From: a virus | DNA: 64,000 nucleotides | Reading direction: 5' to 3' (one strand) | Virus record (IMG/VR): IMGVR_UViG_3300031857_011362 | Coordinates: 60,443 to 124,442 of that record | Part shown: one piece after another, positions 8,652 to 34,345 of the stretch | How positions within the stretch are numbered: position 1 is the stretch's first letter | Layout: each line of letters opens with the position of its first letter | Translations under genes and position numbers: made by a program | Notes under the pieces: model-generated | What the model was told of the DNA's origin: nothing | The model's input: the letters and a program-made list of their open reading frames with translations, nothing else | Databases searched by the model: none

Positions 8652-9506
8652 ATGTCAACTGAAGAAGAAATTCAACAAACCATCGATTCAATGAAGGATT
8701 CACTGCTACTTACTGATAGTAGAGTGGGAGTCTTTTTGGTATATAGAAATGATAACACTGTAAGTAAGTCAATTGACATGTACGGTGAATACTGCCAAGC
8801 AGAAATTAACATAATTAAGCAATACTTACCCGATGATACTAGTCAATATATCGATATAGGTACTAACGTTGGATATCATTTAGTAGCGGTGCATAAAGAA
8901 ACAAACTGTAATGCACTGGGATTTGAACCCAATCCTAAGCATTTTGCAGTAGCATCTTACAACAGCAAAGACTACCCTAAAATTCAAATTATCAACGCTG
9001 GCGCTAGTAATAAAAAATCTGAACGTGTTTTAAAAGATTTCGACCCCGAAGTAAAATCTAACTACGGTGATATACATATCACTAATAGTAGCGAAGGCAT
9101 TCCTGTTAGAATGCTTACCTTAGATAATGTAGAACTTGCCCACTGTAACGTTATCAAAATTGACGTAGAAGGGCATGAGTTTGAAGCACTACAAGGATGT
9201 GTTAAGACTATCAGCAAATTCAGACCTGTTATCTTTTATGAAGCAATGGAATGGGATGTTTGGAATAACTGCCAACAGTTTTTAGAAGCTAGAAAATACA
9301 AACAATATTGGGTAGCTTGCAGAACTAAGCCTATTGCAGAAACATTTAAACATAGTGATGAAAACCCATTTGAAGACAGCACCGTAGCTAACATTTTAGC
9401 AGTACCGGCTGAATTAGCACAACCAGACTACTTAGTTGAAGTAGTCCCGGGTGAGGGATTTATGACATGTTTCGAACGCTATAAAAAAATTAAGATACTA
9501 TTTTGA
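8652..9506 (+). CDS. FkbM-family methyltransferase
   Basis: IDIGTNVGY, FEPNP, IKIDVEGHE..L.G..KTI..FRP. Confidence 0.88.
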   Translation: MSTEEEIQQTIDSMKDSLLLTDSRVGVFLVYRNDNTVSKSIDMYGEYCQAEINIIKQYLPDDTSQYIDIGTNVGYHLVAVHKETNCNALGFEPNPKHFAVASYNSKDYPKIQIINAGASNKKSERVLKDFDPEVKSNYGDIHITNSSEGIPVRMLTLDNVELAHCNVIKIDVEGHEFEALQGCVKTISKFRPVIFYEAMEWDVWNNCQQFLEARKYKQYWVACRTKPIAETFKHSDENPFEDSTVANILAVPAELAQPDYLVEVVPGEGFMTCFERYKKIKILF

Positions 9507-9519
9507 TATAGTAACTACC

Positions 9520-10134
9520 ATGCAAATAGACACAGACCATTTACATCATTGGATGAGAGCTATTCGTGGTAGTAAAGATCCTTTAAGAACAATGGATGCG
9601 TTTTGGAACGGTCAAATAAAAAGCAAAGAGTGGTTAATAGATAGTTTAGATTTTGTCATTCGACCCTATATCAATAAAACAGTACTGTCAATAGACATTC
9701 ACGGCGGCTGGGTTGGAGTACTAGCCAGCATGTTGTTTCAAAGTAACCTACACATATCAACTATTCGTAATATAGATATTGACCCTGATTGTCAAGATAT
9801 AGCTCACACTATGAATCAGCTAGAAACTCATGCAGGAAGATTTCGTGCTATTACTGCTGATATGTGTGTAATTAGGTCAGATGCAGATATTGTCATAAAC
9901 ACTAGCTGTGAACATATATCACAAGATGCGTATGAATTATGGTTGTCTGGAATTAGGAACGACAGTTTGATAGTTCTGCAAAGTAATAATTACTCAATAC
10001 CAGAACATGTTCGGATTGCTAATAGCCTGGCAGAATTTAAGAGGCAGGCATGTATAGAAAATATATTATATACCGGTGAACTTGATTTGCCCCTGTATAA
10101 AAGATACATGATTATAGGAAAAAAGTATGTTTAA
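9520..10134 (+). CDS. Class I SAM-dependent methyltransferase-like protein
   Basis: IHGGWVG, IDIDP, DIVINTSCEH. Confidence 0.65.
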   Translation: MQIDTDHLHHWMRAIRGSKDPLRTMDAFWNGQIKSKEWLIDSLDFVIRPYINKTVLSIDIHGGWVGVLASMLFQSNLHISTIRNIDIDPDCQDIAHTMNQLETHAGRFRAITADMCVIRSDADIVINTSCEHISQDAYELWLSGIRNDSLIVLQSNNYSIPEHVRIANSLAEFKRQACIENILYTGELDLPLYKRYMIIGKKYV

Positions 10135-11218
10135 ATTCTCTGAGTTAAAAACTTTGCACATAGAGCTAACATCACGTTGTCAAGCTAGTTGCCCTATGTG
10201 TGCAAGAAACTATCATTCGGGACAAGAAAATACAAACTTACCTTTAGATGAAATTTCCGTAGATGATTTCAAAAGTATAGTTAATACAGAAGTGCTTTCT
10301 CAAATAGAATACATTTATTTTTGTGGTAACTACGGAGATCCGATAATATCTAACAACTTATTAGAGATAGTCTCTTATTGCAAAAGTCAGAAAGAAAACA
10401 TCAAGTTAGGAATACACACTAATGGTAGTGCAAGAACACCTGACTGGTGGAGTAAATTAGCAACGATATTGCCAACGGAACACAGTGTGCATTTTGCCTT
10501 AGATGGACTTGCTGACACTCATCACTTATACAGAGTAGGTACTAGCTTTGATAAAATTTTAGAAAATGCTAAGGCATTTATATCTGCAGGTGGACGTGCT
10601 GAATGGGTTTTCTTATCCTTCAAGCATAACGAACATCAAGTTGAAACAGCCAGACAGATGGCAAAAGATTTAGGGTTTGAAAAATTTACTCATAAAGCAA
10701 CTAGTAGATTTTTAGAAAAGCCGTGGTTAGATGTTATGAATGCGCAGGGTGAAGTATTATATAAAATTGAACCACCATCTGAGCATAAGATAACTTTCAT
10801 ACACCCTGATATTATCAAGTCTTATAAAAAGGTAGTCGAGACGGCATCCATCAACTGCAAAGCAATAAATACTAAATCATTGTATATTGATGCATTTAAG
10901 AATTTATGGCCCTGTTGTTGGATAGGAATGATACCGTATACTTATAGTAAGCCTGCAGATATTGTACATGAATATCAAACTGAACAGGCTAATGTTATTA
11001 ATGAACTAGTAACATCTATTGGGGGTTATGATTCAATAGACCTTCTTAAAAATTCAGTGAAGACAATTTTAGAAAACCCTGATTGGTCAACCGTGTGGGA
11101 GAAGTATTGGAATACACATAGTCTAGCAACATGCGCTAAGATATGTGGTACATTCCCAGAAAAAATAATCACACAATATGACGAACAATTTATCAAAGTA
11201 GAATCATTTAATGAGTAA
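10127..11218 (+). CDS. Radical SAM protein with C-terminal SPASM/twitch-like Cys
   Basis: CQASCPMC, GNYGDP, WPCCW, CAKIC. Confidence 0.9.
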   Translation: MFKFSELKTLHIELTSRCQASCPMCARNYHSGQENTNLPLDEISVDDFKSIVNTEVLSQIEYIYFCGNYGDPIISNNLLEIVSYCKSQKENIKLGIHTNGSARTPDWWSKLATILPTEHSVHFALDGLADTHHLYRVGTSFDKILENAKAFISAGGRAEWVFLSFKHNEHQVETARQMAKDLGFEKFTHKATSRFLEKPWLDVMNAQGEVLYKIEPPSEHKITFIHPDIIKSYKKVVETASINCKAINTKSLYIDAFKNLWPCCWIGMIPYTYSKPADIVHEYQTEQANVINELVTSIGGYDSIDLLKNSVKTILENPDWSTVWEKYWNTHSLATCAKICGTFPEKIITQYDEQFIKVESFNE

Positions 11219-12623
11219 CATATATTGGCTACAACCAGAAGATAACCTGTTAGGTAAATGGCAACGCAAAGTCGCAGACATATCAGGCAGCAATACCTTT
11301 TGTATCCTGCCCTGGATTCATTTTGCCACACGACCTAACGGCGATATGAGGCTGTGCTGTGGTTCTAATTCTAGTGGTGCAGGGTCAGACCATGAGATTG
11401 GATTAGTAAAGAATGAGGCCGGATCTCCTGCTAACTTTGGCAGCGAGACTCCCATGAGTGCATGGAACAATAGCTATATGCGTTCTGTTAGAACAACAAT
11501 GCTTAACGGTGAGATTCCTAGAAGCTGTACCAAATGCTTTGATGAAGAATCAAACGGTGTGGCTAGCAAGAGAATGTGGGAGTCTGGTACATGGATACAA
11601 GATGGTCTGGATGTTAAAGAACTTATCAAGCAAACAGAAGAAGACGGAACAGTTCCTGAAAAGCTATTATACTTAGACCTAAGATTAGGTCATAACTGTA
11701 ATATCAAATGTATTATGTGTAGCCCGCATGATTCGAGTAGATGGGTACAAGATTACAAAAAAGTGTTTCCTATACTTAAGTCACCTGAAATTAAATCTCA
11801 ACTGAGTTGGAATGAAGAATCATTCAATAACAAGTGGCACGAAAATCCAGACTTTTGGAAAGAGATGTATGCGCAAATCCCTAACTTAAAGCAAGTATAT
11901 TTTGCTGGTGGCGAACCTCTAATGATTAAAGAGCATAAGTTGTTCTTAGAGGAAATTGTTCGTCAAGGTTATGCTGATAAGATTCTAATTAGATACAACT
12001 CTAATGGATTGTTACTAGATGATAGCATTATTAAACTGTGGGAGAAGTTTAGAAAAGTTAAGTTTGCATGTAGTCAGGATATGTTTGGAGACAGAAACCA
12101 CTATATCAGATACCCAACAGAGTGGGACATTGTGGAAGAGAAGCTAGATATACTAGATAACACACAGGACAACATTGAAGTAAGCATTGCTACCGCGATA
12201 CAAATTTTAAACGTCAAGAAACTACCCGAGTTTGCTAAGTGGAAGATTCAAAAGAATTTTAAGAAAATAAACAAAGCAACTGTCATGGACGAGTCTGATG
12301 CAGGTGGTGGAATCTTTAACATGCATTTTGTTTATATCCCCACGTTTCTAAGTGTCAAAATATTGCCCGAAAAAGACAAGCAAGAAGTAAGAGAAATCTA
12401 CTCAGAGTTTAAGACTTGGCTGTGGGATAACTATAGACAAGACGATAACTTTTGGCATCATAACCCATATGGATGGAAACGTTGGCAAGCTGTATTGGAT
12501 TTTATGGACAGTGAAGACCATACTCATTTACTGCCGGCGTTCAAAGAGTATATAGAGACTATGGACAGTGTTAGGGGGAATAGTTTCAAAGAAACGTTCC
12601 CTGAGTTAAGTCACTTGATTTAA
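11211..12623 (+). CDS. Radical SAM protein with N-terminal twitch-like domain
   Basis: CILPW..RLCC..CTKC then CNIKCIMC, FAGGEP. Confidence 0.9.
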   Translation: MSNIYWLQPEDNLLGKWQRKVADISGSNTFCILPWIHFATRPNGDMRLCCGSNSSGAGSDHEIGLVKNEAGSPANFGSETPMSAWNNSYMRSVRTTMLNGEIPRSCTKCFDEESNGVASKRMWESGTWIQDGLDVKELIKQTEEDGTVPEKLLYLDLRLGHNCNIKCIMCSPHDSSRWVQDYKKVFPILKSPEIKSQLSWNEESFNNKWHENPDFWKEMYAQIPNLKQVYFAGGEPLMIKEHKLFLEEIVRQGYADKILIRYNSNGLLLDDSIIKLWEKFRKVKFACSQDMFGDRNHYIRYPTEWDIVEEKLDILDNTQDNIEVSIATAIQILNVKKLPEFAKWKIQKNFKKINKATVMDESDAGGGIFNMHFVYIPTFLSVKILPEKDKQEVREIYSEFKTWLWDNYRQDDNFWHHNPYGWKRWQAVLDFMDSEDHTHLLPAFKEYIETMDSVRGNSFKETFPELSHLI

Positions 12624-13508
12624 CTTTGTCAATGGTATATCTGCCGCGCACGTACAGTAATTCCTATCACAGATAACGGGCCCGGTGGGTATAACGAACG
12701 AGTTGGTATATATATTTCCTAATGTTCCACCAACTCTACACGTAGCCCGATGTACGTCACCGTCCCAGTTAATCATTAAACTTTCTAATCCTGCATTGCA
12801 ATGCCAACCTTTATATTGATTTAAATGCTTTTTAATCACATCATTGGCATGCATCATTAGTTCACGGTCCTTGTATATCAATACAGTATTAGGTTCTACT
12901 GTACTACTCTTACTCAGTATCCAATCTAAGTCGTTTTGGTCATACTTCATATCATCAAACAAATCGTGGTCACCTTCAGTCCAACGTATCCTACGTATAC
13001 CGTGATTAATAGTATGGTGCTCTAATAAGCCCGCCGCCGTCTTTACTTCTCGCATATGATTATGATGAGCCATAACATTAACTAACACGTGAGTGTGCAT
13101 AACAGTTTCATGGACAGCTTTGATAGTGTATAATACATTTAACCAATCATATTCAAAGTGTAGTGAGAACACCCATTGGTCTACTTGCTGAGATGTATAC
13201 CAGCTATCCTTTCTAGTTCCATTAGTAGTAATACTAAGCCAAAAGCCCTTACTCTTAATATATGCTATGAGTTCTTCTATACGAGGATGTACGCATGGTT
13301 CACCACCAGTTAAACTTAAGCGAATAGGTTTTTCTAAGTCACATAATCTATCTACAGTTGCCTTAAGTAGTTCAATATCGGTATGGGGACTAGAATTATC
13401 GTGTATAACTGACGGACAATAACTACAGTCATAGTTACAGCGTTTCCCTATGTTCCATTCAATCTTAATACTGTCCTGATGATTCCATCGACTTTTAACT
13501 TTATGCAT
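12606..13508 (-). CDS. Radical SAM protein
   Basis: CNYDCSYC, TGGEP, C-terminal CNAG..C..C..CTC. Confidence 0.9.
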   Translation of the reverse strand: MHKVKSRWNHQDSIKIEWNIGKRCNYDCSYCPSVIHDNSSPHTDIELLKATVDRLCDLEKPIRLSLTGGEPCVHPRIEELIAYIKSKGFWLSITTNGTRKDSWYTSQQVDQWVFSLHFEYDWLNVLYTIKAVHETVMHTHVLVNVMAHHNHMREVKTAAGLLEHHTINHGIRRIRWTEGDHDLFDDMKYDQNDLDWILSKSSTVEPNTVLIYKDRELMMHANDVIKKHLNQYKGWHCNAGLESLMINWDGDVHRATCRVGGTLGNIYTNSFVIPTGPVICDRNYCTCAADIPLTKLNQVT

Positions 13509-14754
13509 AGGGCTTAAACTCTGGAATCACTGTTAATAAACTTTGGTTACGACTACTATCTAGTTCATAGTTAAATGATAAAAAATCTTGCCACAAGTGA
13601 TGTTGATCCTTTGCACGTAAGTAATTGATATTGTCTTTTATCTGTTGCTGTGTTACCTTTTCTAGTATGGGGTGCTTAACAACATTACTAAATGTGTGGA
13701 CTTTTTTACTGACTGTTTCAAGACGTTGTATAGCTAATTCTTTGAGTTCATGTGGTAACACTTGTGCTGAAAGACAATTGGGATAGCTGACACGATGACT
13801 ATAGAACACAATATTCATCTTATTGATAAAATAGTCAATGCATTCAGCTGCCTGCAGTATATTACCTGCTTGTGCTGTAAACGCACCCACTACACGACTT
13901 ACATTGGTTATTGTTTGAATTTCTTTTATATTTCTTTCTACCTCAGTAAAGTCACCGTTGCCTCTTATGTAGTCATACACATCGTTGATTCCATCTAGAC
14001 TAACATTAACTGCAATGCTTCTAAAGTGTGGCCAATAATCATGTATTGTGCGTCCCTTACTGATACCAAGTGTGGTCCCGTTAGTAGCATATTTGAGTTC
14101 AATGTTTTTACCATATGGTTTTAACATGTCTAGTATCTTATAATGTTGCGGGTCCATTAATGGCTCACCACCTGCAAATTCTACTCGCCTAAAGTGTGGT
14201 AGTAATTTTTCAAAGCTAGCCCACCAGTTGTCAGTGTCATCAAATGCACCTATATACTTGCCGGGCTTGTTTACCAATGATTCAATTGTGGGTACTAAAA
14301 AGTTATTTTCTTTTTTATAAAAGGGTACAACTTTATCCCAATCCGTCCAATTAGTGCTATCTAATGGATTGCACATGCGACATTTCAAGTTGCATAGATT
14401 GTTAAGTTTAATTTCCATCGTAGGAAATGTGAAGGGCAGTATTTCTTGTAGAGGCGTATCTGGATACAAGTTGATTCGTGCTTCGGGAATGACTCCATTA
14501 ATATGTCGCTGACGTAGACTTTCTACGCCCTGATCTTCTAAATCAAAGCAAGGCTTGCATACCTCAGGACGTTCTCCACACAGTACTTGCCTACGAACAA
14601 GTTGCATTGTATCATTATTCCAAATTTCTTCTAGTGTGTTATCTGCTATATTACCAATTGGTGCACTACGACAACAGACTTTAACTGCCCCATCTTCACG
14701 TGTAGCTAGCCCGGTAAAAGGATGCATACAAAACGTTTTACTTTGATTGTTCAA
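13501..14754 (-). CDS. Radical SAM protein with N-terminal twitch-like domain
   Basis: CMHPF..KVCC..CKPC then CNLKCRMC, FAGGEP; TTG start inferred. Confidence 0.88.
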   Translation of the reverse strand: MNNQSKTFCMHPFTGLATREDGAVKVCCRSAPIGNIADNTLEEIWNNDTMQLVRRQVLCGERPEVCKPCFDLEDQGVESLRQRHINGVIPEARINLYPDTPLQEILPFTFPTMEIKLNNLCNLKCRMCNPLDSTNWTDWDKVVPFYKKENNFLVPTIESLVNKPGKYIGAFDDTDNWWASFEKLLPHFRRVEFAGGEPLMDPQHYKILDMLKPYGKNIELKYATNGTTLGISKGRTIHDYWPHFRSIAVNVSLDGINDVYDYIRGNGDFTEVERNIKEIQTITNVSRVVGAFTAQAGNILQAAECIDYFINKMNIVFYSHRVSYPNCLSAQVLPHELKELAIQRLETVSKKVHTFSNVVKHPILEKVTQQQIKDNINYLRAKDQHHLWQDFLSFNYELDSSRNQSLLTVIPEFKPYA

Positions 14755-15439
14755 TTGCCCACTCTCTTTCCTTACACCAAAAACATGTATTACACAACGG
14801 AACATATTGTCCTGTTATGTAATTTTTATAATTTAAATCGTCAAACACGCCTTCACAACTTCTAGTTAGTTCAAACAGTTCTAGTAAGTTTTGCTTTCTA
14901 TACTCAGTTAGTATTTCTTTCTTTTCTAAGAATCTAAAAGGATGAATGGCAAGTTTACCCATATGAGTAGTATACTCTAAATGCTTATTGTACTCCGTGG
15001 GGTCAATGTCTCTAGTATGCATCCCGTCAAATTCTACAGCTTTTGGATTTCGTGTCACCGCGTTATAATATACGTCAATGTCATGTGAATAGCATATGTA
15101 TTCAGCAAAAGAACGTAACTCAATATTATCGCCGCTGACTGTCTTTCCATATTCGTCAGTTAGAGTGGGTCCTAAGGCTCCCCACTCCATTTCTGGCGGG
15201 ATAAAGTTTTCATGCCTAAACATCTTAACGTTAGGAAACTTAATCTGTAACCAATTATATATACCAAGAGCATCATTTCTTTGCCAGGGCTTTGTTTTCC
15301 AGCATCTGACATGTGATATTATATGTAGTTCTTGATTGGTTATTTGCTGACATATGAGAAATGCTAGCAATGCACTATCGGCACCACCACTTAGACTAAT
15401 AGATATCTTGTTCCAACTATTATCAAAGTGAATATTCAT
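14738..15439 (-). CDS. QueC-like PP-loop ATP pyrophosphatase
   Basis: SLSGGADS PP-loop, TRSC..CNTCFWC Zn-type Cys cluster. Confidence 0.75.
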   Translation of the reverse strand: MNIHFDNSWNKISISLSGGADSALLAFLICQQITNQELHIISHVRCWKTKPWQRNDALGIYNWLQIKFPNVKMFRHENFIPPEMEWGALGPTLTDEYGKTVSGDNIELRSFAEYICYSHDIDVYYNAVTRNPKAVEFDGMHTRDIDPTEYNKHLEYTTHMGKLAIHPFRFLEKKEILTEYRKQNLLELFELTRSCEGVFDDLNYKNYITGQYVPLCNTCFWCKEREWAIEQSK

Positions 15440-15478
15440 GTATATATTTATTAGCTACCTTACAGTCTTATAAATAAT

Positions 15479-16165
15479 ATGATGCTTAAAGAATTAAATC
15501 ACACTGTACCAAAAGATATTCTAGATAAAGCCATGGCAGAATTTTCTTATAGTGACTTTAAGACACCTATTAATGAGCCCACTGGTAACTTTTTCTATAG
15601 TCCATGGACTATTAGACCAGAGTTTAAAGATACTGTATGGGAATATATCTTACAAACTCTGCCCTATTCAATTGGGGAAGCAAGATTAATAAACTTAAAA
15701 TACGGAACATGCTATCAAAGTCATGCTGATATAGATGATAGATATCATTTAAACATACAGGGTGACATTTCTGCACTGATTAATTTAGAGACAAACACAA
15801 TGTATCCTGTAACTACAGATGGTAAATGGTACGAAATGGATGCGTCAAATAGACACAGCGCCGCAAACTTTGGATATGTAGAAAGAATACAGTTGGTAGT
15901 TAGAAAGCTGTTAAACAAGAATGATATATCAAATCCAACAATGATTGTTATAAAGAGTAAAACGGATAATGAATTTAGCAATAGATTTCTATTCGATAAT
16001 CAGATAAGCGGAGTTCTCAACAGCTACAACAAAAACAATATTATTACAGATTTCAATCCTACTAGCAAAGAAGTCAGACTCTGTATTAATTCAGATTACA
16101 TTAGTGAATTAGAATCTAAAATGTCTGAAAACTTCTATATAGAACATATCAAGGAACAACAATGA
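15479..16165 (+). CDS. Asp/Asn beta-hydroxylase-like 2OG-Fe(II) oxygenase
   Basis: SHAD..RYHL..HSAAN..R..LV. Confidence 0.7.
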   Translation: MMLKELNHTVPKDILDKAMAEFSYSDFKTPINEPTGNFFYSPWTIRPEFKDTVWEYILQTLPYSIGEARLINLKYGTCYQSHADIDDRYHLNIQGDISALINLETNTMYPVTTDGKWYEMDASNRHSAANFGYVERIQLVVRKLLNKNDISNPTMIVIKSKTDNEFSNRFLFDNQISGVLNSYNKNNIITDFNPTSKEVRLCINSDYISELESKMSENFYIEHIKEQQ

Positions 16166-16854
16166 TTAACAATACCGGATGGGAATATATTTACAAATTA
16201 ACGAACGGCTACCCCTGTTCTACTAATGTACTATATACTCCTACTACGAATGCACAACGTGACCGAATGTGTATGCACTTTTCCACATATTCTCCTGAAT
16301 ATATGACTGGTAGTTGCGTACCACGATCAGATGAGCTTATGGACTCATTCTTTCAACGTGAATTAAAGTATTTAAGTCTATTTCAGGGTCAAGCCTGGTG
16401 TCCTGAAATATATGAAGTTGATGCAACTGAGAGAAAGATTCTAGTAGAGTTTAATGGCGAAAGTTTAAACTGGCCTGTATATACTGAGGGTAGAGATTTA
16501 AATCATGAATTCCCGTCATGGAAAGAAGACTTGTACAATATTATTAAAAGTATTCATGATTTGGGTTATCATAAGGCATCTATATATCCCCATTGCTTCT
16601 TCTATACAAAGACTAACCAGCTTAAAATGGTAGACTATTATGCAACATTAGATAAAAATGACACAAGAATGCATAAAAGCCTTATTGAGCCAATCATTGG
16701 TGTAGATAGTCAGCAACGTTTTATAGAAGTTAAAGACGGTGATTACTATGAAATGGCAGATCACTTTAAGAATTCAATGAAGACTTGGATTAAATGGCCG
16801 GACGATCCTTTACCAGAATTCTATGATAGAATTATTCAAGGAATTTCAACATGA
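16162..16854 (+). CDS. Protein-kinase-like fold protein, catalytic loop degenerate
   Basis: RELKYL, PEIY, IH.LGYH..SIYP, MVDY; paralog of 22336..23019. Confidence 0.5.
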   Translation: MINNTGWEYIYKLTNGYPCSTNVLYTPTTNAQRDRMCMHFSTYSPEYMTGSCVPRSDELMDSFFQRELKYLSLFQGQAWCPEIYEVDATERKILVEFNGESLNWPVYTEGRDLNHEFPSWKEDLYNIIKSIHDLGYHKASIYPHCFFYTKTNQLKMVDYYATLDKNDTRMHKSLIEPIIGVDSQQRFIEVKDGDYYEMADHFKNSMKTWIKWPDDPLPEFYDRIIQGIST

Positions 16855-22293: not shown

Positions 22294-22335
22294 ATATTAT
22301 TTATGTTCTATGTCTAACCTTATAAATATTATGCA

Positions 22336-24151: not shown

Positions 24152-24159
24152 GTTAAATC

Positions 24160-25370: not shown

Positions 25371-25402
25371 TAATTTTATTCTCTTATCAATATTTATTAA
25401 AT

Positions 25403-26809
25403 ATGCGTATGCTACAGAAAATTCACACCAACCACCATGCAAAATCGATATTAATTTGCATACATGATATTTTAAATGATTGTCAATCTGATTGGTCAAG
25501 AGAGATAGCTAAAAATTTATCCGACTATATGGTTAATCGTTTCTTAAAATACGGTTATGATGTGTGTATAGGAACCGATGAAAATGAATTATTGAGCCAT
25601 GGATTAGACCAATATAGTCATGCTGTCATTATAGCTACTGGTACTAGCCCTAAGTTGTCGGATAGACTGATAGGTGCAATAGAAGACAAGTGTATGGAAG
25701 ATTTTTACCTAGCAGGACATGTATTAGATAGAAAAGAAAAGTATTTTGAACTACACCATCAATTCTATATAGTAAATTTAAAAACCCATGCTGAGTTAGG
25801 ATGCCCAATTATTGGTGATGTATCTGATAATACACATACCTTAACTAAACCCATATCAGATAGTAATGATGATTATATTGCCCAAGTACTGAAATGTGGC
25901 ACAGAAGACTACTCATACTCTGGGGTTATGCATGGTTGGAATATATTATCTACTGCATTAGAACATAATAAACCTATTATTGATTTGGGCAATGATATAC
26001 GAAACAACAAGAAATATTTCTATTATGAATACGACCATGTATTTTTAAAAGAGTCTACGTCTTTATATTACAATCAGTATTTCTTCAATAACTTTGTAGT
26101 CCCGTTCAACAGCGATAGATTAAGCGAAAACTTAGTATTTGAAGGACCAATAGAACAATATATAACTTTAGGTACAGGTATTAATTGGGTTGAAAATCTA
26201 CACAAGGTTGGCTTTACAGAATCTACCGTTGTGTATTTTACAGATATCAATCCATTGGTTTTACAATTTATGCAGTCTATGGTAAAAGAATGGGACGGGG
26301 AAGATTATGTAGATTTTTACATGTCAAAGAATTTTATAATCCCAAATAATATTCAGTATGATTATGATAGCTATATGGAACAAACTAGAAGCCAATGGCT
26401 TGCATTCAGAGTTAATAATCCCGACTGGTTGACTAAATGGAATAATATACGCGGTCTTACTTTCAAATTCATATCTATTGATTACATGAGTGAATACAAC
26501 TTTGATTGGTTTGATAGTAACAAAAAAACAATTTTTAATGCCAGTGATATGTTTGACCATGTCCCGGTTATCTTTCAGCAAAGTATGAAGTATAGAATAG
26601 CGGCAGAGAATCGCTTTATTACTAGGCTTCAAGAAAAAGATCCCAACTTATACTTACTTTGGACAAGTCGAGCCTGCACTGAGTTTATGAAAACTAGTGA
26701 TGCCCCTAAGTTTCAAACAATATGTGAAGTTAATGTAGTTGACATAGAACAAATTGTTCGACCATATTGGCATAAGGACGATTGGAATACATTAAGACCA
26801 TTGGTCTAA
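25403..26809 (+). CDS. Hypothetical protein
   Basis: 468-aa ORF; function not recognised. Confidence 0.65.
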   Translation: MRMLQKIHTNHHAKSILICIHDILNDCQSDWSREIAKNLSDYMVNRFLKYGYDVCIGTDENELLSHGLDQYSHAVIIATGTSPKLSDRLIGAIEDKCMEDFYLAGHVLDRKEKYFELHHQFYIVNLKTHAELGCPIIGDVSDNTHTLTKPISDSNDDYIAQVLKCGTEDYSYSGVMHGWNILSTALEHNKPIIDLGNDIRNNKKYFYYEYDHVFLKESTSLYYNQYFFNNFVVPFNSDRLSENLVFEGPIEQYITLGTGINWVENLHKVGFTESTVVYFTDINPLVLQFMQSMVKEWDGEDYVDFYMSKNFIIPNNIQYDYDSYMEQTRSQWLAFRVNNPDWLTKWNNIRGLTFKFISIDYMSEYNFDWFDSNKKTIFNASDMFDHVPVIFQQSMKYRIAAENRFITRLQEKDPNLYLLWTSRACTEFMKTSDAPKFQTICEVNVVDIEQIVRPYWHKDDWNTLRPLV

Positions 26810-26813
26810 TGTT

Positions 26814-27485
26814 TTATATTAGTGAAGACTCAACTAAACATTCTTTAATGTCTTTTGCTATTTGTTCATGTGTTAGTGGACCTGGGTGACAATTATCTAA
26901 TGCGTAATCTACAAAATTCCCTACTATTAACTTAATATCCTTATAAGGTATTTTAACGTATTTGGGTTTATAATCTCTTAAGCTGTCATAATCTACAAAG
27001 AAATTATAATGCGGAACATTTATACTAGATAGATATAAATTAGCATGATGTACATGTAACCAAGTCCTCATTATTAAATCAGTGTCATTGTGGGCCAACA
27101 TCCAGTCTTTTGATAGACCATCATGGGCCCAAGATCCAACATGCACTGCCATATCAGCGTGGTCTATTTTTTTACTAAAAAACTCTAACGTCGGGTTGTA
27201 CTTTTCGTGGAATATCATATCCCTACTATGAAAACTCCACATTACCACACATAGTGAGTCATTATTAAAGTTAGTGTTGAGTATTCTATGCAATATTGCA
27301 AGATTGCTAAACCCCGGCCCACTACGGTTGACCATGTTGTATTCTAAATCTTTTGCTAGTAAAGACGGCCACGCATATTGACTACATACTGAGCCAACCG
27401 TATAATCATTACCCTGCTTCATCCAGCAGTCTTCTAAGCCGTGACCGTATGTATATGAATCTCCAAAAGCAAATAGTGTTCTCAT
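26814..27485 (-). CDS. SGNH/GDSL hydrolase-like protein
   Basis: FGDSYTYG, G.SN, D..HPG. Confidence 0.72.
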   Translation of the reverse strand: MRTLFAFGDSYTYGHGLEDCWMKQGNDYTVGSVCSQYAWPSLLAKDLEYNMVNRSGPGFSNLAILHRILNTNFNNDSLCVVMWSFHSRDMIFHEKYNPTLEFFSKKIDHADMAVHVGSWAHDGLSKDWMLAHNDTDLIMRTWLHVHHANLYLSSINVPHYNFFVDYDSLRDYKPKYVKIPYKDIKLIVGNFVDYALDNCHPGPLTHEQIAKDIKECLVESSLI

Positions 27486-28474
27486 AATTTTTCTTTTGGT
27501 ATCTTACTGTCAGCACTAGAGACACATGAAGGTGTAGTACAAATTACCGGTTTGTCAAAGATAGTAAAACCTTTACTTAGTGACCCTAACGGTGTATCAC
27601 TGCAACTATAACTACGTTTTACTTCATCACTGCGTATCACTATGCCCTGATACCCACTATTACACATCCATCCTTCAAACTTGTTGAATCCAAATGCATT
27701 GAATCGTTCTGCTTGATCTAGCCAGTGCACCTTGTTTGTATCATCTATTAGTTTAACTTGTAGTACAGGCTCATCATTTGCCTGTTGAGGAAATCCATTA
27801 CGCATGATTTGTATCATTTCATCAGTATACCCACTAACAACAAAACTAGCAGTAGGATCACTCTGTGGCTTAAGTGTGACATTGATCCCACGTTTATGAA
27901 AACGTTGTAGTCGTTCATAGCTTTCCCAAAAGAATTCAGGAACCATAACTTGATTGACTGTTACATAGACTTGTTCCTGCATCAATGCTAGAATCTTATC
28001 TCCAAACTCGTTCTCTTTGGCAAACTCTGCATGAAAACTAGCAGTTAGGCTTCTACGTTGTAATAGACTAGTAGCTTTATCCCAACGTAGCCACCAATTG
28101 ATACTGGGCGACAGATTGGTAGTCATGTGGACACTTTGATAACCTTCGACTGGACCTTCATCTAAGTGTTGAGTGAGTTCTAGCAAATGCTTATATGCTG
28201 TGGGTTCTCCACCACTAAAGCTCCAGTGAAACTTGTTAAACCCATTACGTCTAGCTTGTTCTTTGATACTGTCAATAGAGTTCTTGTATATTTGTAAATC
28301 TTGATGGTCTGGCACATTGCTATTAGCATATGGCCAGCAATAGCTACAGCTATAATTACAGAATCTTCCAAGTATCCAGCTAACGGTGAATAAGTCCATG
28401 TCAAGCATATTTGCTTGCCCAAACTTAACTATCCTATCGAATGGAATATCACTGAAGTTGTTTTGTGTACTCAT
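27482..28474 (-). CDS. Radical SAM protein
   Basis: CNYSCSYC, SGGEP, CNSG..SC..C..PSC; paralog of 12606..13508. Confidence 0.9.
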   Translation of the reverse strand: MSTQNNFSDIPFDRIVKFGQANMLDMDLFTVSWILGRFCNYSCSYCWPYANSNVPDHQDLQIYKNSIDSIKEQARRNGFNKFHWSFSGGEPTAYKHLLELTQHLDEGPVEGYQSVHMTTNLSPSINWWLRWDKATSLLQRRSLTASFHAEFAKENEFGDKILALMQEQVYVTVNQVMVPEFFWESYERLQRFHKRGINVTLKPQSDPTASFVVSGYTDEMIQIMRNGFPQQANDEPVLQVKLIDDTNKVHWLDQAERFNAFGFNKFEGWMCNSGYQGIVIRSDEVKRSYSCSDTPLGSLSKGFTIFDKPVICTTPSCVSSADSKIPKEKL

Positions 28475-29990
28475 CGTGTAGCCATTCGTAGTTGTTGATT
28501 AGTTTAAGTTTTTCGTTATCGTTTTTGTTTGCTTCGCCATATAGCTTGCCCATCAATGCACCTCGAATTGTCTCACGACCGTATTGTTCTTCAGCACCAA
28601 CACTGCACCACGTGAACAGTCTGTCTAATGTTTCACTTGATTGTTGCCTGTCAATAACTTGGCTAGATAGTTTGACACATTCACGGAAAGCAGTACGCCA
28701 AGAACTAAACTCATCTGTGTTAAACTTGTGTATGTTGCTTATGATGTGTACAGGCTCATACAGTGTGCTAATGCTGGTAGTCATATCTACTTTATCAGTA
28801 CTCATACGCATGGTAGCAAGACGAGGAAGCAGTTTAATTCCACCGTGACCGTATACTAATTTGTTTACAGGATTGATAGAACGAAATACTCTGACAGTAG
28901 GTTGTTCGTAAAACTTCACATCATTGTATACAAAGTTAAAATCATCGTGTATGATTGCATCACCATCTACTACCCAAAAGTAATCAGTCTGACACATCTT
29001 TGCCGCACGTATGTGTGCATTGTGTATACCCTGAACCCCACTCAATACTTTAGTACGGGGGAAACGTTCTTTAACTTTGTTGAAATTTTCTTCTGCTTCG
29101 GGTTCGTTGTTGTGAATGAATACAATATCATACTTTGGGGTATAGTTTACAGGGCTACGTGTTGGGTTAGTAATACGGGTCCTGTAATCACTACATACCC
29201 AACCTTGTAGTGCTATCCCGATGTTATTATCGTTGGTCTTTTCTTTTATCAATATACCTAGTACATTTACTTCTTCTAATAATGTCCCTGGCATTACATT
29301 TGTCATATGCTCAAACAGTTTATCAAGGAATGAAAAATTCTTAACGTTGTTTGAACCGTCCCAGTAATTGACCTTGAGCATAAAGTAAGCTAGTCTTGCA
29401 CCATAAACAGCGTATAGTCCGTTCTCTATATCTTCGCCAATGTGCATCCAACGCCATATCCTATCATAATTACGCCAGTCTATGTTATCATCACGTGTGA
29501 GTTTTATGACTTCACGGAAGCCTGCACGCCATGCTTGTAGTGGGCTAGCATTAATGTGCAAATCGCTACCTATATTGTTTAGTTCTATGTACTTGTTTAA
29601 CACAAAGTCAATGCTATCGTCATCACCGTTTTCGTGTGTACGCATTTCTATGATATGTTTAACAGGCCAGCATTTGATACCACCATTTCCATAACTAGTG
29701 CCATTGACAATGTTATATCCTGCATAGCTTATAACATCCTCATCCGAATACTCTATATCAATATCAGTTGTATAGAAGTCATCTCTGACCCAATTGTCTC
29801 CGTCAATGATGACAACACGGTCAGTTGTTGCTAGTTTAGCACATTCTTTGTGTGCAGTATCACTACCCTCTACCCCATGCACTCTTAGAGCATTTGGGTT
29901 TAGAGTTAATAAATGTTGATAGTTTTCTTCACAGTTTGGTTCATCATAGCTTAGAAACACTGTGGTATAGTCTGAGGGATTAAATCGCAT
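28449..29990 (-). CDS. Tandem two-domain GT-A glycosyltransferase-like protein
   Basis: Two internal repeats, each with GV.G..AH, DGD, YG.GGIK, WR..FRE..KL. Confidence 0.7.
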   Translation of the reverse strand: MRFNPSDYTTVFLSYDEPNCEENYQHLLTLNPNALRVHGVEGSDTAHKECAKLATTDRVVIIDGDNWVRDDFYTTDIDIEYSDEDVISYAGYNIVNGTSYGNGGIKCWPVKHIIEMRTHENGDDDSIDFVLNKYIELNNIGSDLHINASPLQAWRAGFREVIKLTRDDNIDWRNYDRIWRWMHIGEDIENGLYAVYGARLAYFMLKVNYWDGSNNVKNFSFLDKLFEHMTNVMPGTLLEEVNVLGILIKEKTNDNNIGIALQGWVCSDYRTRITNPTRSPVNYTPKYDIVFIHNNEPEAEENFNKVKERFPRTKVLSGVQGIHNAHIRAAKMCQTDYFWVVDGDAIIHDDFNFVYNDVKFYEQPTVRVFRSINPVNKLVYGHGGIKLLPRLATMRMSTDKVDMTTSISTLYEPVHIISNIHKFNTDEFSSWRTAFRECVKLSSQVIDRQQSSETLDRLFTWCSVGAEEQYGRETIRGALMGKLYGEANKNDNEKLKLINNYEWLHDEYTKQLQ

Positions 29991-30016
29991 GACTGTATTT
30001 ATAATGTAAATATGTC

Positions 30017-31375
30017 ATGCTTAAGATTATTAGTTCGCCACCATTTGATGATTATAGTAAAAAACTGTTCTTTCAATTATTCGGTCAAAAGAAAAAATTG
30101 GGTCTGGATAGTGCTAGTTTTATATACTTGTGGACTGGACCATTAACTAATAACAACACCTATTCATACAGCAATTCTATATCGTTTAATACAAACCCTA
30201 CATCATTGCCCAAATTTGTTGATTTTATGTTATCTCATGCACGGATGCTAGCCGGTAAAAAAAGATTTTTTAACTCACGTGATGAAATGTTTTCTTTATA
30301 TCTTGAGTATGTTGGGGTAGATGTTTCACGTGAAATATTTGACCAGTACTATTCTACCTATGTAGAAAGCATCATAGACCGTAGTACAATGGAAGATATG
30401 ATTCAAGAGGCATGCATAAATGACGTTATAGTATTATTTGTCAAAGATCACTTTAGAATAAATTTTAAAAATTCTTGGATTGATCCAATACCCGAACTGG
30501 TTACTTACTTTGCAAATTTGTGTAATTACTTCCCTGATAAAAAATTTATCATTGTTACTAGTTTGGAAAACTTAGATAAAGAACTAAAATCTAGCAATTG
30601 TAAAATAGTGAACATGGGCGGAGATATAACTAATCAGATATCAAGTTATATGAATTTTACCCCTTTGATAGAAAAATCCGCAACTAAGAATTTTATATCA
30701 TTGAACCGAGGAGATAGACCCCATAGGGTGTATCTGGTTTCAAATTTATATGCTAAAAATTTACACAATCACGGGCAGATTAGTTTATTAACCCCGCAGA
30801 ACCCGAATGCAAAACTCAATGAAGCAATTATCTATAACTATAAAAATGACCAAAATTATGAATTATCAAACATTGGTTTCAGTAAGTATGTGGCCGAACA
30901 TAACCATCAGATAGCCGATAGCTATAATATTTACCCTCAGCGTGGTAATGACAATTTACGAAATTTCCAAGATTCTTTACAGAGTAAGTATCTTAATAGT
31001 TATGTGGAATTTGTTTCGGAAACCAGTTTCAATGAAAAGAGCTTTAACATAACGGAAAAAACACTACATTTCATATACGGTTGCAATTATCCTATAATGA
31101 TTTCTAGTCCCGGCGTAGTCAAATTTCTGCGAGAAATGGGAATAGATATGTTTGATGATATAATTGACCATTCATATGATGATATAGAAGATCCTTGTGA
31201 CCGCATAGTCCAGGCTATAAACAAAAATATAAAAATTTTAACTATGGATCTGAATTCTCTACGGAAACAGTGGGAAAATGATAAATACAGAATGGAGCAA
31301 AATATTAAATTTGTCCAGACCAAATTAGCTAAATTCTATCAGGATAGATTTTGGCAACAGATTAAAGGATTATAA
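30017..31375 (+). CDS. Glycosyltransferase-like hypothetical protein
   Basis: LNR..RPHR, FVSET, ITEKT..I, FD.IIDHSYD. Confidence 0.5.
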   Translation: MLKIISSPPFDDYSKKLFFQLFGQKKKLGLDSASFIYLWTGPLTNNNTYSYSNSISFNTNPTSLPKFVDFMLSHARMLAGKKRFFNSRDEMFSLYLEYVGVDVSREIFDQYYSTYVESIIDRSTMEDMIQEACINDVIVLFVKDHFRINFKNSWIDPIPELVTYFANLCNYFPDKKFIIVTSLENLDKELKSSNCKIVNMGGDITNQISSYMNFTPLIEKSATKNFISLNRGDRPHRVYLVSNLYAKNLHNHGQISLLTPQNPNAKLNEAIIYNYKNDQNYELSNIGFSKYVAEHNHQIADSYNIYPQRGNDNLRNFQDSLQSKYLNSYVEFVSETSFNEKSFNITEKTLHFIYGCNYPIMISSPGVVKFLREMGIDMFDDIIDHSYDDIEDPCDRIVQAINKNIKILTMDLNSLRKQWENDKYRMEQNIKFVQTKLAKFYQDRFWQQIKGL

Positions 31376-31376
31376 C

Positions 31377-31979
31377 ATGGTACATTACACACTGATGCAA
31401 GACGCAATCCCTTCAGTATTCAACATTGATTTTCTACAAGCATGTAGTCAAAAATTAGAATATTTTATAGATACTAAAACCCTATTAGGGGGAGAAGCTA
31501 TTCACCCTATTAATGAAATAGATGAAATATTTGATTTATCAAACTCAGAGGAGTTTAAAACTATTGCAGTCAAAATTAATCCATTCAAGCGAGTAGTACT
31601 ACACTATTTTGCATATAATAACTATCCTGCTGAAGAATACTCTGACTCTGAATATTACACTCAATTTACTGATACTGATGATTTTGATAAGTTTGTGGAA
31701 CATTATTTTTCACCAGATAACCTTGAAGGACCGTTAGTGAACTCAAGTGACTACTACTTCACTGACAAGTTGTCGGTTACGTATTTGTTAGAATTTGACA
31801 CTTTTGCCACCGACATAAAACAAATTCCAGAATTCAGTACAGTAGAAAATACTGATTATTTTCACGTAGCTCAAGACTTATCTGCCGATTACCGTAGCTA
31901 TTACACTACACAAGCTACAATTGATAAGGTCGCTCAAGTTTATGCTAAAGACCTTGCCAAATACGGATATACATTCTAA
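31377..31979 (+). CDS. Sulfotransferase-family-like protein
   Basis: NPF.RVV, acidic core, YRSYY..V..VY..DL..YGY. Confidence 0.55.
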   Translation: MVHYTLMQDAIPSVFNIDFLQACSQKLEYFIDTKTLLGGEAIHPINEIDEIFDLSNSEEFKTIAVKINPFKRVVLHYFAYNNYPAEEYSDSEYYTQFTDTDDFDKFVEHYFSPDNLEGPLVNSSDYYFTDKLSVTYLLEFDTFATDIKQIPEFSTVENTDYFHVAQDLSADYRSYYTTQATIDKVAQVYAKDLAKYGYTF

Positions 31980-32013
31980 CAGTAGTCACCAATGGGTGAC
32001 TGTATAAAGTTAC

Positions 32014-32617
32014 GTGATGCTAAACCAACCCAGTCTGGCAATTCTTATTGATTTTTGGAATCCAATAGCAATCAAAAGGGTTAACAATACTATTGAATTT
32101 TTGAGTACCAATGATACTATCAAAACTGTAGTATTATCAACTTATAATTCCCGCTCTGAGTTATTTTTTAATAATACTATTTGGTACCGTAATCGAAAAG
32201 AATGGTATAAAAAATCACCAACATGGGCCCAAAATAAGTCAACGGTAGAAGACACTGCATATATAAAAAACAACAGTTTAAAAAATGTAACCACTGATAC
32301 GCATATACTTCAGTATTATAATTCAAAACAATATCAAATTGCAATGCTCCAGTTACTGGGAACTAGAGTATTATTTGTCTATGCACCCGGAAATAAAAAA
32401 CGTATATATATTTGGTTGTGCATGGGAGGACTGTGTTAAACATAGACCGATTGGTTATTTGGCACTGTCACAGCTACAAAATGTTAACATATTAACTAAT
32501 ACTACTTTAGTAAGTAACATTGCAATGAAACGTCCCGATTTATCTTTAGATCGTGACTGGATCAATGTAGAGGGAAACGTATATAGGTATTTGGGCAACG
32601 AGAAGGTTGACTCTTAA
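32014..32617 (+). pseudogene. Isochorismatase/cysteine-hydrolase-like gene split by a frameshift near 32347
   Basis: ORF 32014..32439 (ILIDFW) continues in +1 frame 32339..32617 (VYIFGCAW.DCV..RPIG). Confidence 0.5.
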
Positions 32618-32984: not shown

Positions 32985-33359
32985 ATGAACAAAGAACAAA
33001 AAAGCGAGTATGCGAAAGAAAGATATAAAAAGAATAGAGAAAGGTTACTAGAGTATCAGAACAAACGATACAACGAAACATTGGATATCTTCCAGCAATG
33101 GAGAAAAACTTTGAAGTGTTGTAGATGTGAGGAGAATGATGTTGCTTGTTTAGAGTTTCATCATAGCGATCCAGAGACAAAGGAAAATAATGTCGTAAGG
33201 ATGGTATCTCGCAGTGTGAAGTCTGTTATCAAAGAACTCAAAAAATGTGTTGTAGTTTGTGCTAATTGTCATCGCAGGATACATGCGTATGACATAAAAA
33301 CAGACCCTAACACCGAGGATCTAGGAACAAGTTTTGAAAATTTTTTGAAAGAAATTTGA
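32985..33359 (+). CDS. HNH endonuclease
   Basis: CCRC..LEFHH..CVVVCANCHRRIH. Confidence 0.85.
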   Translation: MNKEQKSEYAKERYKKNRERLLEYQNKRYNETLDIFQQWRKTLKCCRCEENDVACLEFHHSDPETKENNVVRMVSRSVKSVIKELKKCVVVCANCHRRIHAYDIKTDPNTEDLGTSFENFLKEI

Positions 33360-33384: not shown

Positions 33385-33679
33385 ACAAAACTTCTGAAAC
33401 AAAACGTGATTGGTATTCTACTCACACATTGACGAAGGAACAATACGCACAGTTGATACAAAATAAGATCGACCGTGTAAAGTCTTATCAAGAGGCTACC
33501 AAGAAAGCTAACAAGCTAGCAGGTATCACTTGATAGGCAGCGTGAACAGGCAACGAGAGCCGTAATACAGCGCAAAATGTATAGAATGGGCGGACAGGAA
33601 ACATGAACGAGTGGCGATAACACTCTTAGTAAGACTCCTGGGTAGGGTATCAACCCTATCATGTCGTGTAGCAATACAC

Positions 33680-33767
33680 GGCATTCTAAAACATACGTAG
33701 TGAAACACTTTAGCTTACAACGCTATACCCACACGACTCGGGAGTACTAGGTGTGTTTTAGAATGCC
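33680..33767 (+). ncRNA. Stem-closed structured RNA candidate A
   Basis: 17-bp stem GGCATTCTAAAACATAC/GTGTGTTTTAGAATGCC enclosing three small hairpins. Confidence 0.55.
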
Positions 33768-33769
33768 AC

Positions 33770-34345
33770 TTAAGTATTTGGTGTATTATAGATTCTTTCT
33801 ATATATTTTTTTATATTGTATATGTTAACAGGCTCTATGATCTTAGCATTATGTGACCCCAACAGATTATTGTTTAACAAATATTCATAAGTTAATTCTT
33901 CGTCAAATTTTATAGCTAAGTCATTGATTAATTTATCATTTTTGTTTATTATATCGATTGATTTTCTAACCGAATCAGCTAGAAATTTTACTGTATATTT
34001 TTCACCTCGGGCAAGACTATTCTTTGAGTTCCATATTGTTGTCATCTCGGCTACATAGTAGCTAGCAATTTGTTCAATTTTATTTTCTCTGGTCAATTTT
34101 ATTTTATAACAATCGCTGTTTAAAATTTCTTGATAAAGTAAATGTTTATCAATTTGGTCAGGCATAAATTTTACTACAAATGGTTCGTTATTTACAAACA
34201 ACTTTTCTAAAAGATTGTATTCTTCTTCATAAAGATGCGGTTCAGGAAAACATTTGGCTTCATTGTCTTTTGATAATTTGAAAGTGTAGTCACTAGAACC
34301 TGTTCTATAATTTGCCAATAGTAATATACGATTTTTTGTTGTCAT
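33770..34345 (-). CDS. Stf0-like sulfotransferase
   Basis: YRTGSS PSB-like loop, F.EP, KLTREN..QIASY. Confidence 0.65.
   Translation of the reverse strand: MTTKNRILLLANYRTGSSDYTFKLSKDNEAKCFPEPHLYEEEYNLLEKLFVNNEPFVVKFMPDQIDKHLLYQEILNSDCYKIKLTRENKIEQIASYYVAEMTTIWNSKNSLARGEKYTVKFLADSVRKSIDIINKNDKLINDLAIKFDEELTYEYLLNNNLLGSHNAKIIEPVNIYNIKKYIERIYNTPNT

Follow-up and report, generated by a model that had tools for sequence, protein, structure and literature searches.

Virion glycosylation by virus-encoded enzymes is known from chloroviruses, mimiviruses and mycobacteriophages, which decorate their virion proteins in the cytoplasm, and the subject was reportedly treated by Freeman et al. in 2023 (cited in PMC12801897). 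To our knowledge, these systems contain no radical S-adenosylmethionine (SAM) enzymes and no array of 2-oxoglutarate/Fe(II) (2OG) oxygenases. Phage islands rich in radical SAM genes have reportedly been mentioned since 2010, and no published assignment of a product to such an island was found in the literature. This report concerns one such island, a group of tailoring-enzyme genes at positions 8652-34345 (~26 kb) of a 64,000-nucleotide window. The window is the whole stretch of DNA that was analysed and corresponds to bases 60443-124442 of a 124-kb viral contig in IMG/VR (IMGVR_UViG_3300031857_011362). Like the virion glycosylation systems, the island has a soluble virus-encoded glycosyltransferase, here GT2-like, along with enzymes that may modify sugars. 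The reading proposed here, with a confidence that falls somewhat short of an even chance, is a cytoplasmic pathway in which a GT2-like enzyme hands a tailored sugar-type unit to an acceptor, most probably a phage protein.

Other described systems resemble the island in part, and the first two discussed here come closest to it. The host recognition clusters (HRCs) of pelagimyophages and cyanomyophages are also large plastic regions near the tail-fibre genes of T4-like aquatic phages, and share glycosyltransferases, radical SAM cassettes and Asp/Asn beta-hydroxylase genes with the island (PMC7029224). Unlike an HRC, the island lies apart from the fibre array, with a sulfation cluster, ribonucleotide reductase, a PAAR/spike gene and a lysin in between. 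Its radical SAM and oxygenase genes are far more numerous, and it has a single glycosyltransferase. No radical SAM genes were reported in the freshwater genomes of the HRC study (PMC7029224). The Campylobacter phages CP220 and CPt10 carry 11-12 radical SAM genes in exchangeable modules to which no function was assigned (PMC2853527). No close sequence relationship between these phages and the island was seen. Moreover, the CP220 modules carry amidinotransferases and CP220 DNA is fully deazaguanine-modified. The BtrN, GenK and BlsE pathways resemble the island in their twitch-type auxiliary cluster, B12 radical SAM enzyme and decarboxylase-type radical SAM enzyme, accompanied by kinases, oxygenases and methyltransferases. 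The similarity is at the superfamily level only (E ~1e-3 to 1e-6, far below cut-offs), and the island differs in having no scaffold-forming enzymes. The maturation of proteusins such as polytheonamide likewise uses many tailoring enzymes (a radical SAM epimerase, B12 C-methylases, an Fe/2OG hydroxylase and an N-methyltransferase). The island differs in having a GT2-like gene in its conserved core, and no nitrile hydratase leader peptide (NHLP) precursor, protease or recognition element (RRE) for ribosomally synthesised and post-translationally modified peptides (RiPPs) was found. Two island proteins (11211-12623 and 13501-14805) belong to the family NF033640 (N_Twi_rSAM), the closest named entity, with the radical SAM motif, the N-terminal Cys-rich domain and scores far above the cut-off. 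This family is defined by sequence only, whereas the island holds two fixed paralogues within a larger conserved cassette. No characterised member of NF033640 and no paper on the N_Twi family name were found in the literature. Among the systems compared, no characterised glycan, RiPP or DNA-modification pathway fits the enzyme set of the island.

The island is real and widespread. It comprises 30 open reading frames (ORFs) of at least 100 amino acids with tiny or overlapping junctions, so that the extent (~25 kb) and gene density given in the original prediction were right. Purifying selection was found for all 26 island genes with a close orthologue (dN/dS 0.015-0.17 against near relatives at dS 0.27-1.4), the lowest values being those of 18966 and of both N_Twi genes (genes are named here by their lower coordinate). 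A search of 5.8 billion proteins with 11211 gave more than 4,000 matches, of which the best 120 have ~70% identity or more and lie on contigs of up to 344 kb. A set of 87 viral loci was assembled from 80 of the 146 relatives found in the 11211 scan and seven from a scan with 19766. Within it, the methyltransferase-fold gene 9520 was present in 82 loci, and the radical SAM genes 10127, 11211, 12606, 13501 and 27482 in 78, 86, 80, 85 and 78, respectively. The PP-loop gene 14738 and genes 15479, 16162 and 16851 were each found in 41-55. A core of the methyltransferase-fold protein and three radical SAM types thus recurs widely in uncultured viral contigs (>146), and in the relatives gene order is shuffled while identities are still 60-80%. 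In cultured or catalogued phages the picture is different: megablast with the island as query matched none of 50,697 phage records, and the island proteins gave only matches of 23-25% identity, in Ralstonia and Vibrio jumbo phages. A flavin-dependent halogenase (PF04820) lies inside the same island of relative L170 (7319-8902) and a nitroreductase inside that of L169 (4224-4871). Accessory chemistry therefore differs between phages.

Most enzyme identities named in the original prediction were recovered. All seven radical SAM proteins (10127, 11211, 12606, 13501, 19766, 21232 and 27482) scored above the PF04055 cut-off. Both NF033640 members are full-length and well above the curated cut-off of 170 bits, with an invariant CxxxCxxC (C163/C167/C170) and an N-terminal Cys cluster (C31, C49, C50, C106 and C109); the SPASM Pfam model matched this N-terminal region (residues 26-109). 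The seven oxygenases also stand, with graded support. Protein 24714 is a clear PF05118 member, 23564 and 15479 match it weakly, and the others were recognised by profile or structure. Profile-profile comparison with hhalign, which covered 12 island families, joins 23564, 18966, 15479 and the paralogue trio 16851/17933/18457, and the HxD...H residues are kept in all oxygenase-like proteins. The structure of 18966 matched only 2OG dioxygenases in Foldseek (FtmOx1, proline hydroxylase, AlkB and PHD2). The two kinase-like proteins were borne out by ESM Atlas features, structure and paralogy, and the SGNH hydrolase by a weak Pfam match with conserved GDS, G.SN and DxxH blocks. Other labels needed revision. 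Where two methyltransferases had been named, three or four were found (FkbM, the fold of 9520, whose Foldseek matches are O-/N-methyltransferases and nicotianamine synthase, and the weak 25403). The QueC-like label of 14738 keeps the SGGADS and C...CxxCxxC motifs and lacks a match to the QueC hidden Markov model (HMM); its matches are at P-loop level only (TtuA, NAD synthase and TilS). Where two glycosyltransferase-like ORFs had been listed, one protein (28449) with two GT2-like halves was found. One sulfotransferase-like protein (33770) has a weak Stf0 match and the second is a lead at best, as are the GNAT (a weak ESM Atlas match), SDR (a motif) and cysteine hydrolase labels. Ten dark ORFs or accessory proteins gave no match in Pfam at E <= 5 and none in PHROGs, and only generic P-loop matches in NCBIfam at E <= 0.1. 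Profile searches of the PDB with the PP-loop and methyltransferase-like families gave nothing useful, and a sequence search found no PDB relative of radical SAM 27482. As predicted, no synthase, transporter or RiPP precursor was found in Pfam scans and in membrane and small-ORF checks of the island. Together with the purifying selection across 26 genes, this supports the original view of a coherent, selected tailoring-enzyme island.

The core of the island is shared with bacteria. For 11211, the great majority of the nearest cellular homologues (45-50% identity) come from metagenome-assembled genomes (MAGs) of Bdellovibrionales and Bacteriovoracaceae, on contigs of up to 2.5 Mb; those of the 27482 type have ~48% identity. 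ORF clustering over 22 cellular loci placed the N_Twi radical SAM in 21, the 10127 type in 19, the 27482 type in 18, the methyltransferase-fold protein in 13 and a 265-aa protein in 12. The fold of 9520 corresponds to the C-terminal half of the bacterial protein, to which an extra N-terminal domain is fused in Bdellovibrionota. In profile comparison, the 265-aa protein and the C-terminal GT2-like half of phage 28449 proved to be homologues (hhalign 100%, 1.8e-68), and the shared core therefore includes a GT-A-type transferase. In locus L104 the core has as neighbours three GT2 genes, a UDP-galactopyranose-mutase-like flavoenzyme, a PP-loop enzyme and a hydroxylase. In L129 the neighbours are a nucleoside-diphosphate (NDP)-sugar epimerase/dehydratase, a nucleotide-sugar transferase, a 2OG oxygenase and a PNP/MTA-nucleosidase-type gene. 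Of 61 Bdellovibrionota genomes sampled, 12 have members of the N_Twi family, up to 13 per genome, and no NF033640 match above the cut-off was found in 14 model genomes. Thus a minimal core (the methyltransferase-fold protein, three radical SAM types and the GT2-like protein) is common to phages and to chromosomes of predatory bacteria, and forms a defined five-gene unit open to expression and assay. Some side observations concern the same families. The genomes of four cellular loci (G025-G028, of L093, L104, L129 and L117) have 9-14 N_Twi copies above the cut-off each, often in tandem arrays, and one N_Twi-expanded genome is a 1.2-Mb gammaproteobacterial MAG. A 13-kb contig of a 'Neisseriaceae' MAG (L111) is probably a mis-binned phage fragment, since phage-specific genes have homologues on it (28449, at 43% identity, and small ORFs close to the tRNA array). 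We suspect the same of a 'Crocinitomicaceae' contig (L112) with matches to the radical SAM core.

The original prediction had linked the island to late expression through a TAAATA motif, and this motif was found in a fixed register far above chance. Across the contig, 18 of 146 genes have a TAAATA that starts 7-14 nt ahead of the start codon, whereas 0.64 were expected and at most 3 were seen in 200 randomisations. The motif is preceded by A in 14 of the 18, and the resulting ATAAATA usually ends 4-5 nt before the ATG (e.g., 15469-15481, 22321-22338, 29990-30003 and 30005-30019). Seven of the 18 box genes head island transcription units, or eight of 11 units if a start at 25409 is counted. Four others head RCC1 fibre genes, with the extended form ATAAATACAG(C/T)ATG. 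Outside these groups, the box stands before a GIY-YIG endonuclease gene and a small number of other non-structural genes. Co-expression of the island with the virion genes is a reasonable inference, because the island units and the RCC1 fibre genes carry the same start-proximal box. The comparison is with T4-like late promoters. If the box is such a promoter, its spacing would place the mRNA start so close to the ATG that little or no leader is left. The full T4 octamer TATAAATA was not enriched across the window (9 found, 10.4 expected), and neither were sigma-70 promoter-like sites (76 against 87) or terminator-like sites (7 against 9.8). The genes of the island are intact and under strong constraint, their products are soluble, and co-regulation with the fibre genes is probable.

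In the proposed sugar pathway, the input would be a host nucleotide-sugar or a related sugar-type unit, edited stepwise in the cytoplasm. The radical SAM enzymes would perform C-H chemistry. The B12-type and HMPTM-like members could C-methylate the unit, and the twitch-type, '10127'-type and '27482'-type members could epimerise, dehydrogenate, dehydrate or decarboxylate it, or form C-C bonds. Hydroxylation would be assigned to the seven 2OG oxygenases, phosphorylation to the two kinase-like proteins, methylation to the FkbM and methyltransferase-fold proteins, carboxylate amidation to the PP-loop enzyme and removal of an acyl group to the SGNH enzyme. The tandem GT2-like protein would then pass the unit to its acceptor, and a nearby cluster of PAPS-synthase and sulfotransferase genes may add sulfate. 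The acceptor would be a co-produced phage protein, such as a fibre or other virion protein; this is the most likely choice because no island protein is membrane-bound, and a host surface polymer is less likely. We infer the sugar substrate, each individual reaction and the acceptor.

A sugar is favoured as the substrate because a GT2-like gene belongs to the shared core and nucleotide-sugar enzymes occur in the relatives. A virus-encoded glycosyltransferase (28449) is present in the island itself. An NDP-sugar epimerase lies inside the island of a 216-kb relative (G001) and is present in nine of 25 partial relatives, and the GT2-like pair was found in six of 24. Families typical of sugar tailoring are also represented, namely FkbM methyltransferases, Kdo/APH-type kinases and SGNH esterases. 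These accessory families, the lack of membrane machinery and the box shared with the fibre genes argue for the same pathway. Several results weigh against it. No sugar nucleotidyltransferase or DegT aminotransferase was found in the four partial phage genomes (G000-G003, 24-59% complete). In G001 the GT2-like pair is 66 kb away from the island, and in G002 (42% complete) no such pair was found. Among 130 bacterial neighbours tallied, GT2 was the commonest family, yet it accounted for only five, many of the neighbours being housekeeping genes, and the tally is weakly informative. None of the radical SAM proteins is close to a characterised sugar enzyme (best PDB matches MoaA, Tes and SkfB at E ~1e-5, and BlsE at 0.004). 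SPASM/twitch radical SAM enzymes and PF05118 hydroxylases act more often on peptides or proteins, and the halogenase and nitroreductase of the relatives' islands fit aromatic or peptide substrates better.

A broader and more doubtful extension is a radical-SAM 'glycan editing' system common to jumbo phages and predatory Bdellovibrionota, which would do for carbohydrates what proteusin maturation does for peptides. Here, an ordinary sugar decoration on an attack structure (phage fibres or the predator surface) would be rewritten by epimerisation, C-methylation and hydroxylation during or after its attachment. If so, sugars made by no known pathway could tune prey or host recognition, or hide the particle from defences. 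A class of radically edited sugars on virions would also bear on host recognition by abundant aquatic phages, on radical SAM enzymology in oxic waters and on how 'auxiliary metabolic genes' in viromes are read.

The alternative that survives best, although it is unlikely, is direct post-translational editing of a phage protein in the manner of proteusins such as polytheonamide, without a glycan intermediate. The radical SAM enzymes would epimerise or C-methylate residues, the oxygenases would hydroxylate Asp, Asn, Pro or Lys, and the kinases and methyltransferases would modify side chains. The mix of radical SAM, B12 radical SAM, Fe/2OG and methyltransferase enzymes is that of polytheonamide, and auxiliary-cluster domains of SPASM/twitch type and the Asp/Asn hydroxylase family PF05118 are present. 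The solubility of all island proteins, the halogenase of L170 and the high Thr content (14-18%) of the upstream fibre proteins suit it as well; collagen-like repeats, which would hint at prolyl or lysyl hydroxylation, were not found in the fibre proteins. The 185-aa protein at 24160-24717, encoded in one operon with its two flanking hydroxylase genes, is a candidate substrate or virion adaptor. In its C-terminal module (...NGMIVYNDDTHKFQGYANGVWVDLH), the final 27 residues share 85% identity with the C-terminal ends of larger proteins (328-415 aa) that carry PF18454 Mtd_N / PF26696. However, this protein was found in only six of the 87 loci and therefore cannot be the substrate of the core. A precursor gene is also missing: no conserved small ORF was seen in the phage or in the 22 bacterial loci, and the genes abut or overlap, leaving no room for one. 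No RRE (PqqD-like, PF05402) was found in the seven radical SAM enzymes, nor in the four partial genomes at E <= 0.1, and no peptidase or exporter family was found in the island by Pfam. A search for an NHLP leader found none, its control being likewise silent and the result uninformative. The GT2-like gene of the bacterial core also speaks against protein editing and for the sugar pathway.

A diffusible or intracellular small molecule, such as an aminocyclitol/aminoglycoside-like or nucleoside-like compound for host shutdown, phage exclusion or counter-defence, is given a low probability. The families do match the tailoring of aminoglycoside and nucleoside antibiotics (BtrN, GenK, BlsE, APH-type kinases and KanJ), and the weak BlsE match and the halogenase or nitroreductase within relatives' islands point the same way. 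Amidinotransferase genes lie beside radical SAM genes in cyanophage S-SCSM2R and in Campylobacter phages (PMC12801897, PMC2853527). Weak amidinotransferase-like ORFs were found in five of 25 relatives, but these matches are below the cut-off and none is on the present contig. No sugar-phosphate cyclase, non-ribosomal peptide synthetase, polyketide synthase or exporter was seen in the island, and a promoter box common to the fibre genes suits virion assembly better.

Still less probable is a remodelling of the host envelope (lipopolysaccharide/lipid A, capsule or another surface glycan or lipid) that would block superinfection or aid release. A known member of PF05118 is the lipid A hydroxylase LpxO, the kinases belong to the Kdo/WaaP type, the island has GT2 and SGNH enzymes, and fatty-acid desaturases occur among the bacterial neighbours. 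Modification of the O-chain has been proposed for the glycosyltransferase-rich HRCs of pelagimyophages (PMC7029224). Nevertheless, no transmembrane-like segment was found in any island protein, and with it no initiating or polyprenyl-phosphate transferase, flippase, polymerase or exporter (Wzx/Wzy or ABC-type). Host surface remodelling, which the original prediction had kept beside virion decoration, is weakened because the island is without membrane proteins. The proposed timing of the island is also that of the fibre genes and not of early genes.

Hypermodification of phage DNA or nucleotides (7-deazapurine-type, or a new base or sugar), or in a variant of the 28 tRNAs of the phage, is the least probable reading, and the original prediction had also disfavoured it. 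It would draw on the QueC-like motifs of the PP-loop enzyme, on QueD/PTPS in G001 (3.6 kb from the island) and G002 and FolE in G001, and on CP220, in which 11 radical SAM genes accompany DNA that is 100% 7-amido-7-deazaguanine (PMC2853527; 10.1101/2023.04.13.536721), but the deazaguanine-DNA signature TGT/DpdA (PF01702) was not found in the partial genomes G000-G003 (24-59% complete), the QueC HMM had no match to 14738, the best QueE model reached 39 bits against a cut-off of 206, the present contig has no QueD or FolE, and the box is common to the fibre genes. As for the tRNA variant, the island abuts a tRNA array, but no more than two of 25 relatives, and none of the bacteria, have such an array within 10 kb of the core, and tRNA modification was rejected as the main idea on this ground.

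The features of the island are collected in Table 1.

Table 1. Genes of the island, in window coordinates, with the evidence for each assignment.
Feature	Positions	Strand	Evidence
FkbM-family SAM methyltransferase	8652..9506	+	PF05050 2.7e-16; TIGR01444 4.2e-18
Core gene, class I SAM methyltransferase fold, no Pfam family	9520..10134	+	AF2 pLDDT 93.8; Foldseek E ~1e-10
Core radical SAM, type '10127'	10127..11218	+	PF04055 5.2e-11; weak BlsE-like PDB match 0.004
N-terminal-twitch radical SAM, paralogue A	11211..12623	+	NF033640 383.4 bits (cut-off 170); dN/dS 0.022
Radical SAM type '12606/27482', Cys-rich C-terminus	12606..13508	-	PF04055 5.9e-12; STM4011-like C-terminus 5.7e-11; paralogue of 27482
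N-terminal-twitch radical SAM, paralogue B	13501..14805	-	NF033640 314.3 bits; SPASM 4.8e-09 at residues 26-86
PP-loop ATP pyrophosphatase, QueC-like by motifs only	14738..15439	-	invariant SGGADS; C195...C216xxC219xxC222
2OG/Fe(II) oxygenase-like	15479..16165	+	PF05118 0.0051; conserved HADID...H; hhalign links
Protein-kinase-like fold (Kdo/RIO/APH type)	16162..16854	+	ESM Atlas features 0.96-0.97; structure TM 0.62-0.67 to kinase families
Oxygenase-like, small paralogue family	16851..17402	+	hhalign 99.7-99.8% to 17933/18457, 71% to 15479; HxD...H
183-aa protein, Rossmann/SDR-like N-terminal motif only	17389..17940	-	conserved TGxPxHGGI; dN/dS 0.048; no Pfam/PHROG match
Oxygenase-like paralogue	17933..18457	-	BLAST 31% to 18457; hhalign
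Oxygenase-like paralogue	18457..18966	-	BLAST paralogy, hhalign, conserved HxD...H
Divergent 2OG/Fe(II) dioxygenase, most constrained island gene	18966..19778	-	AF2 pLDDT 83; dN/dS 0.015
B12-binding-domain radical SAM (class B methylase-like)	19766..21232	-	PF04055 1.1e-12; PF02310 1.5e-05; weak PhpK/HpnJ-type matches
Radical SAM, HMPTM-type N-terminal zinc ribbon (Tes/TrsS-like)	21232..22293	-	PF23545 7.3e-14; PF04055 5.8e-17; NF045702 3.9e-28, below cut-off
Kinase-like paralogue of 16162	22336..23019	+	BLAST 5e-11; hhalign 100%
183-aa protein, weak GNAT lead	23012..23563	+	ESM Atlas 0.95 to viral cluster (PF00583 in 20% of members); no Pfam/PHROG match
Asp/Asn-hydroxylase-like oxygenase	23564..24178	-	PF05118 0.0022; hhalign 95.6% to 24714
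Non-enzymatic 185-aa protein, fibre-type C-terminal module	24160..24717	-	between two hydroxylase genes, one operon
Aspartyl/asparaginyl beta-hydroxylase family oxygenase	24714..25499	-	PF05118 5.9e-14
468-aa possible methyltransferase	25403..26809	+	PF04672 (Methyltransf_19) 1.3e-4, below cut-off; TAAATA register
SGNH/GDSL hydrolase	26814..27485	-	PF00657 0.0015; conserved FGDSxTxG, GxSN, DxxH
Core radical SAM, type '27482'	27482..28474	-	PF04055 1.3e-10
Tandem of two GT2-like domains	28449..29990	-	PF00535 27.6 bits (cut-off 23.3); halves cross-match
Poorly conserved right arm: 452-aa and 200-aa ORFs, two overlapping ORFs	30017..32617	+	no Pfam/PHROG match; homologues in <=2 loci
HNH-like small protein	32985..33359	+	CANCHRRIH motif; weak PF01844
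Sulfotransferase-like (weak)	33770..34345	-	PF09037 Stf0 0.0035; NF047724 0.042

Some gene boundaries may need adjustment. The true start of the 25403 gene is probably 25409, since the ATG at 25403 overlaps the TAAATA box (box site 25398-25411) and the ATG at 25409 gives the usual -11 register. The gene at 24714-25499 (-) probably starts at Met44 (~25370). In the right arm, the ORFs at 32014-32617 (141 and 92 aa, in different frames with ~100 nt of overlap and no family match) may be a frameshifted or split gene.

The contig, from a lake phage, was rated 35% complete by CheckV, which implies that it is a fragment of a jumbo phage genome of ~350 kb. It starts with a prohead protease (phrog_207), a major head protein (phrog_138) and large Thr-rich structural or fibre proteins, and this structural block includes a family of RCC1-type paralogues. 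The fibre genes are followed by the sulfation cluster, the ribonucleotide reductase NrdAB, a PAAR protein, an 878-aa protein, a cell-wall hydrolase and the island. The fibre array ends ~13 kb upstream of the island, with ribonucleotide reductase and lysis genes between. An array of 28 tRNA genes begins at 34384, immediately past the right end of the island, and an epimerase gene lies at 46254-47048, in the same window and outside the island. Repeated strand switches are seen in the island only, nearly all other genes of the contig being on the plus strand. Just before the island, at 4100-8228, lies what looks like a module for the spike tip and lysis: a PAAR-motif protein, the 878-aa protein without a family match, a cell-wall hydrolase (Hydrolase_2) whose N-terminus has a hydrophobic segment, and a conserved protein of 188 aa.

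HNH-type endonuclease-like ORFs (CxxC...H...CANCH) were found at the right edge of the island (32985-33359) and within the tRNA array (35562-36215), and the former is probably a mobile endonuclease outside the pathway. Two small ORFs, at 2870-3430 (-) and 39472-40008 (+), are paralogues with 61% identity over 90 aa. The first of these follows nrdB and is missing in the near-identical relatives L167 and L168, as expected for a mobile homing endonuclease.

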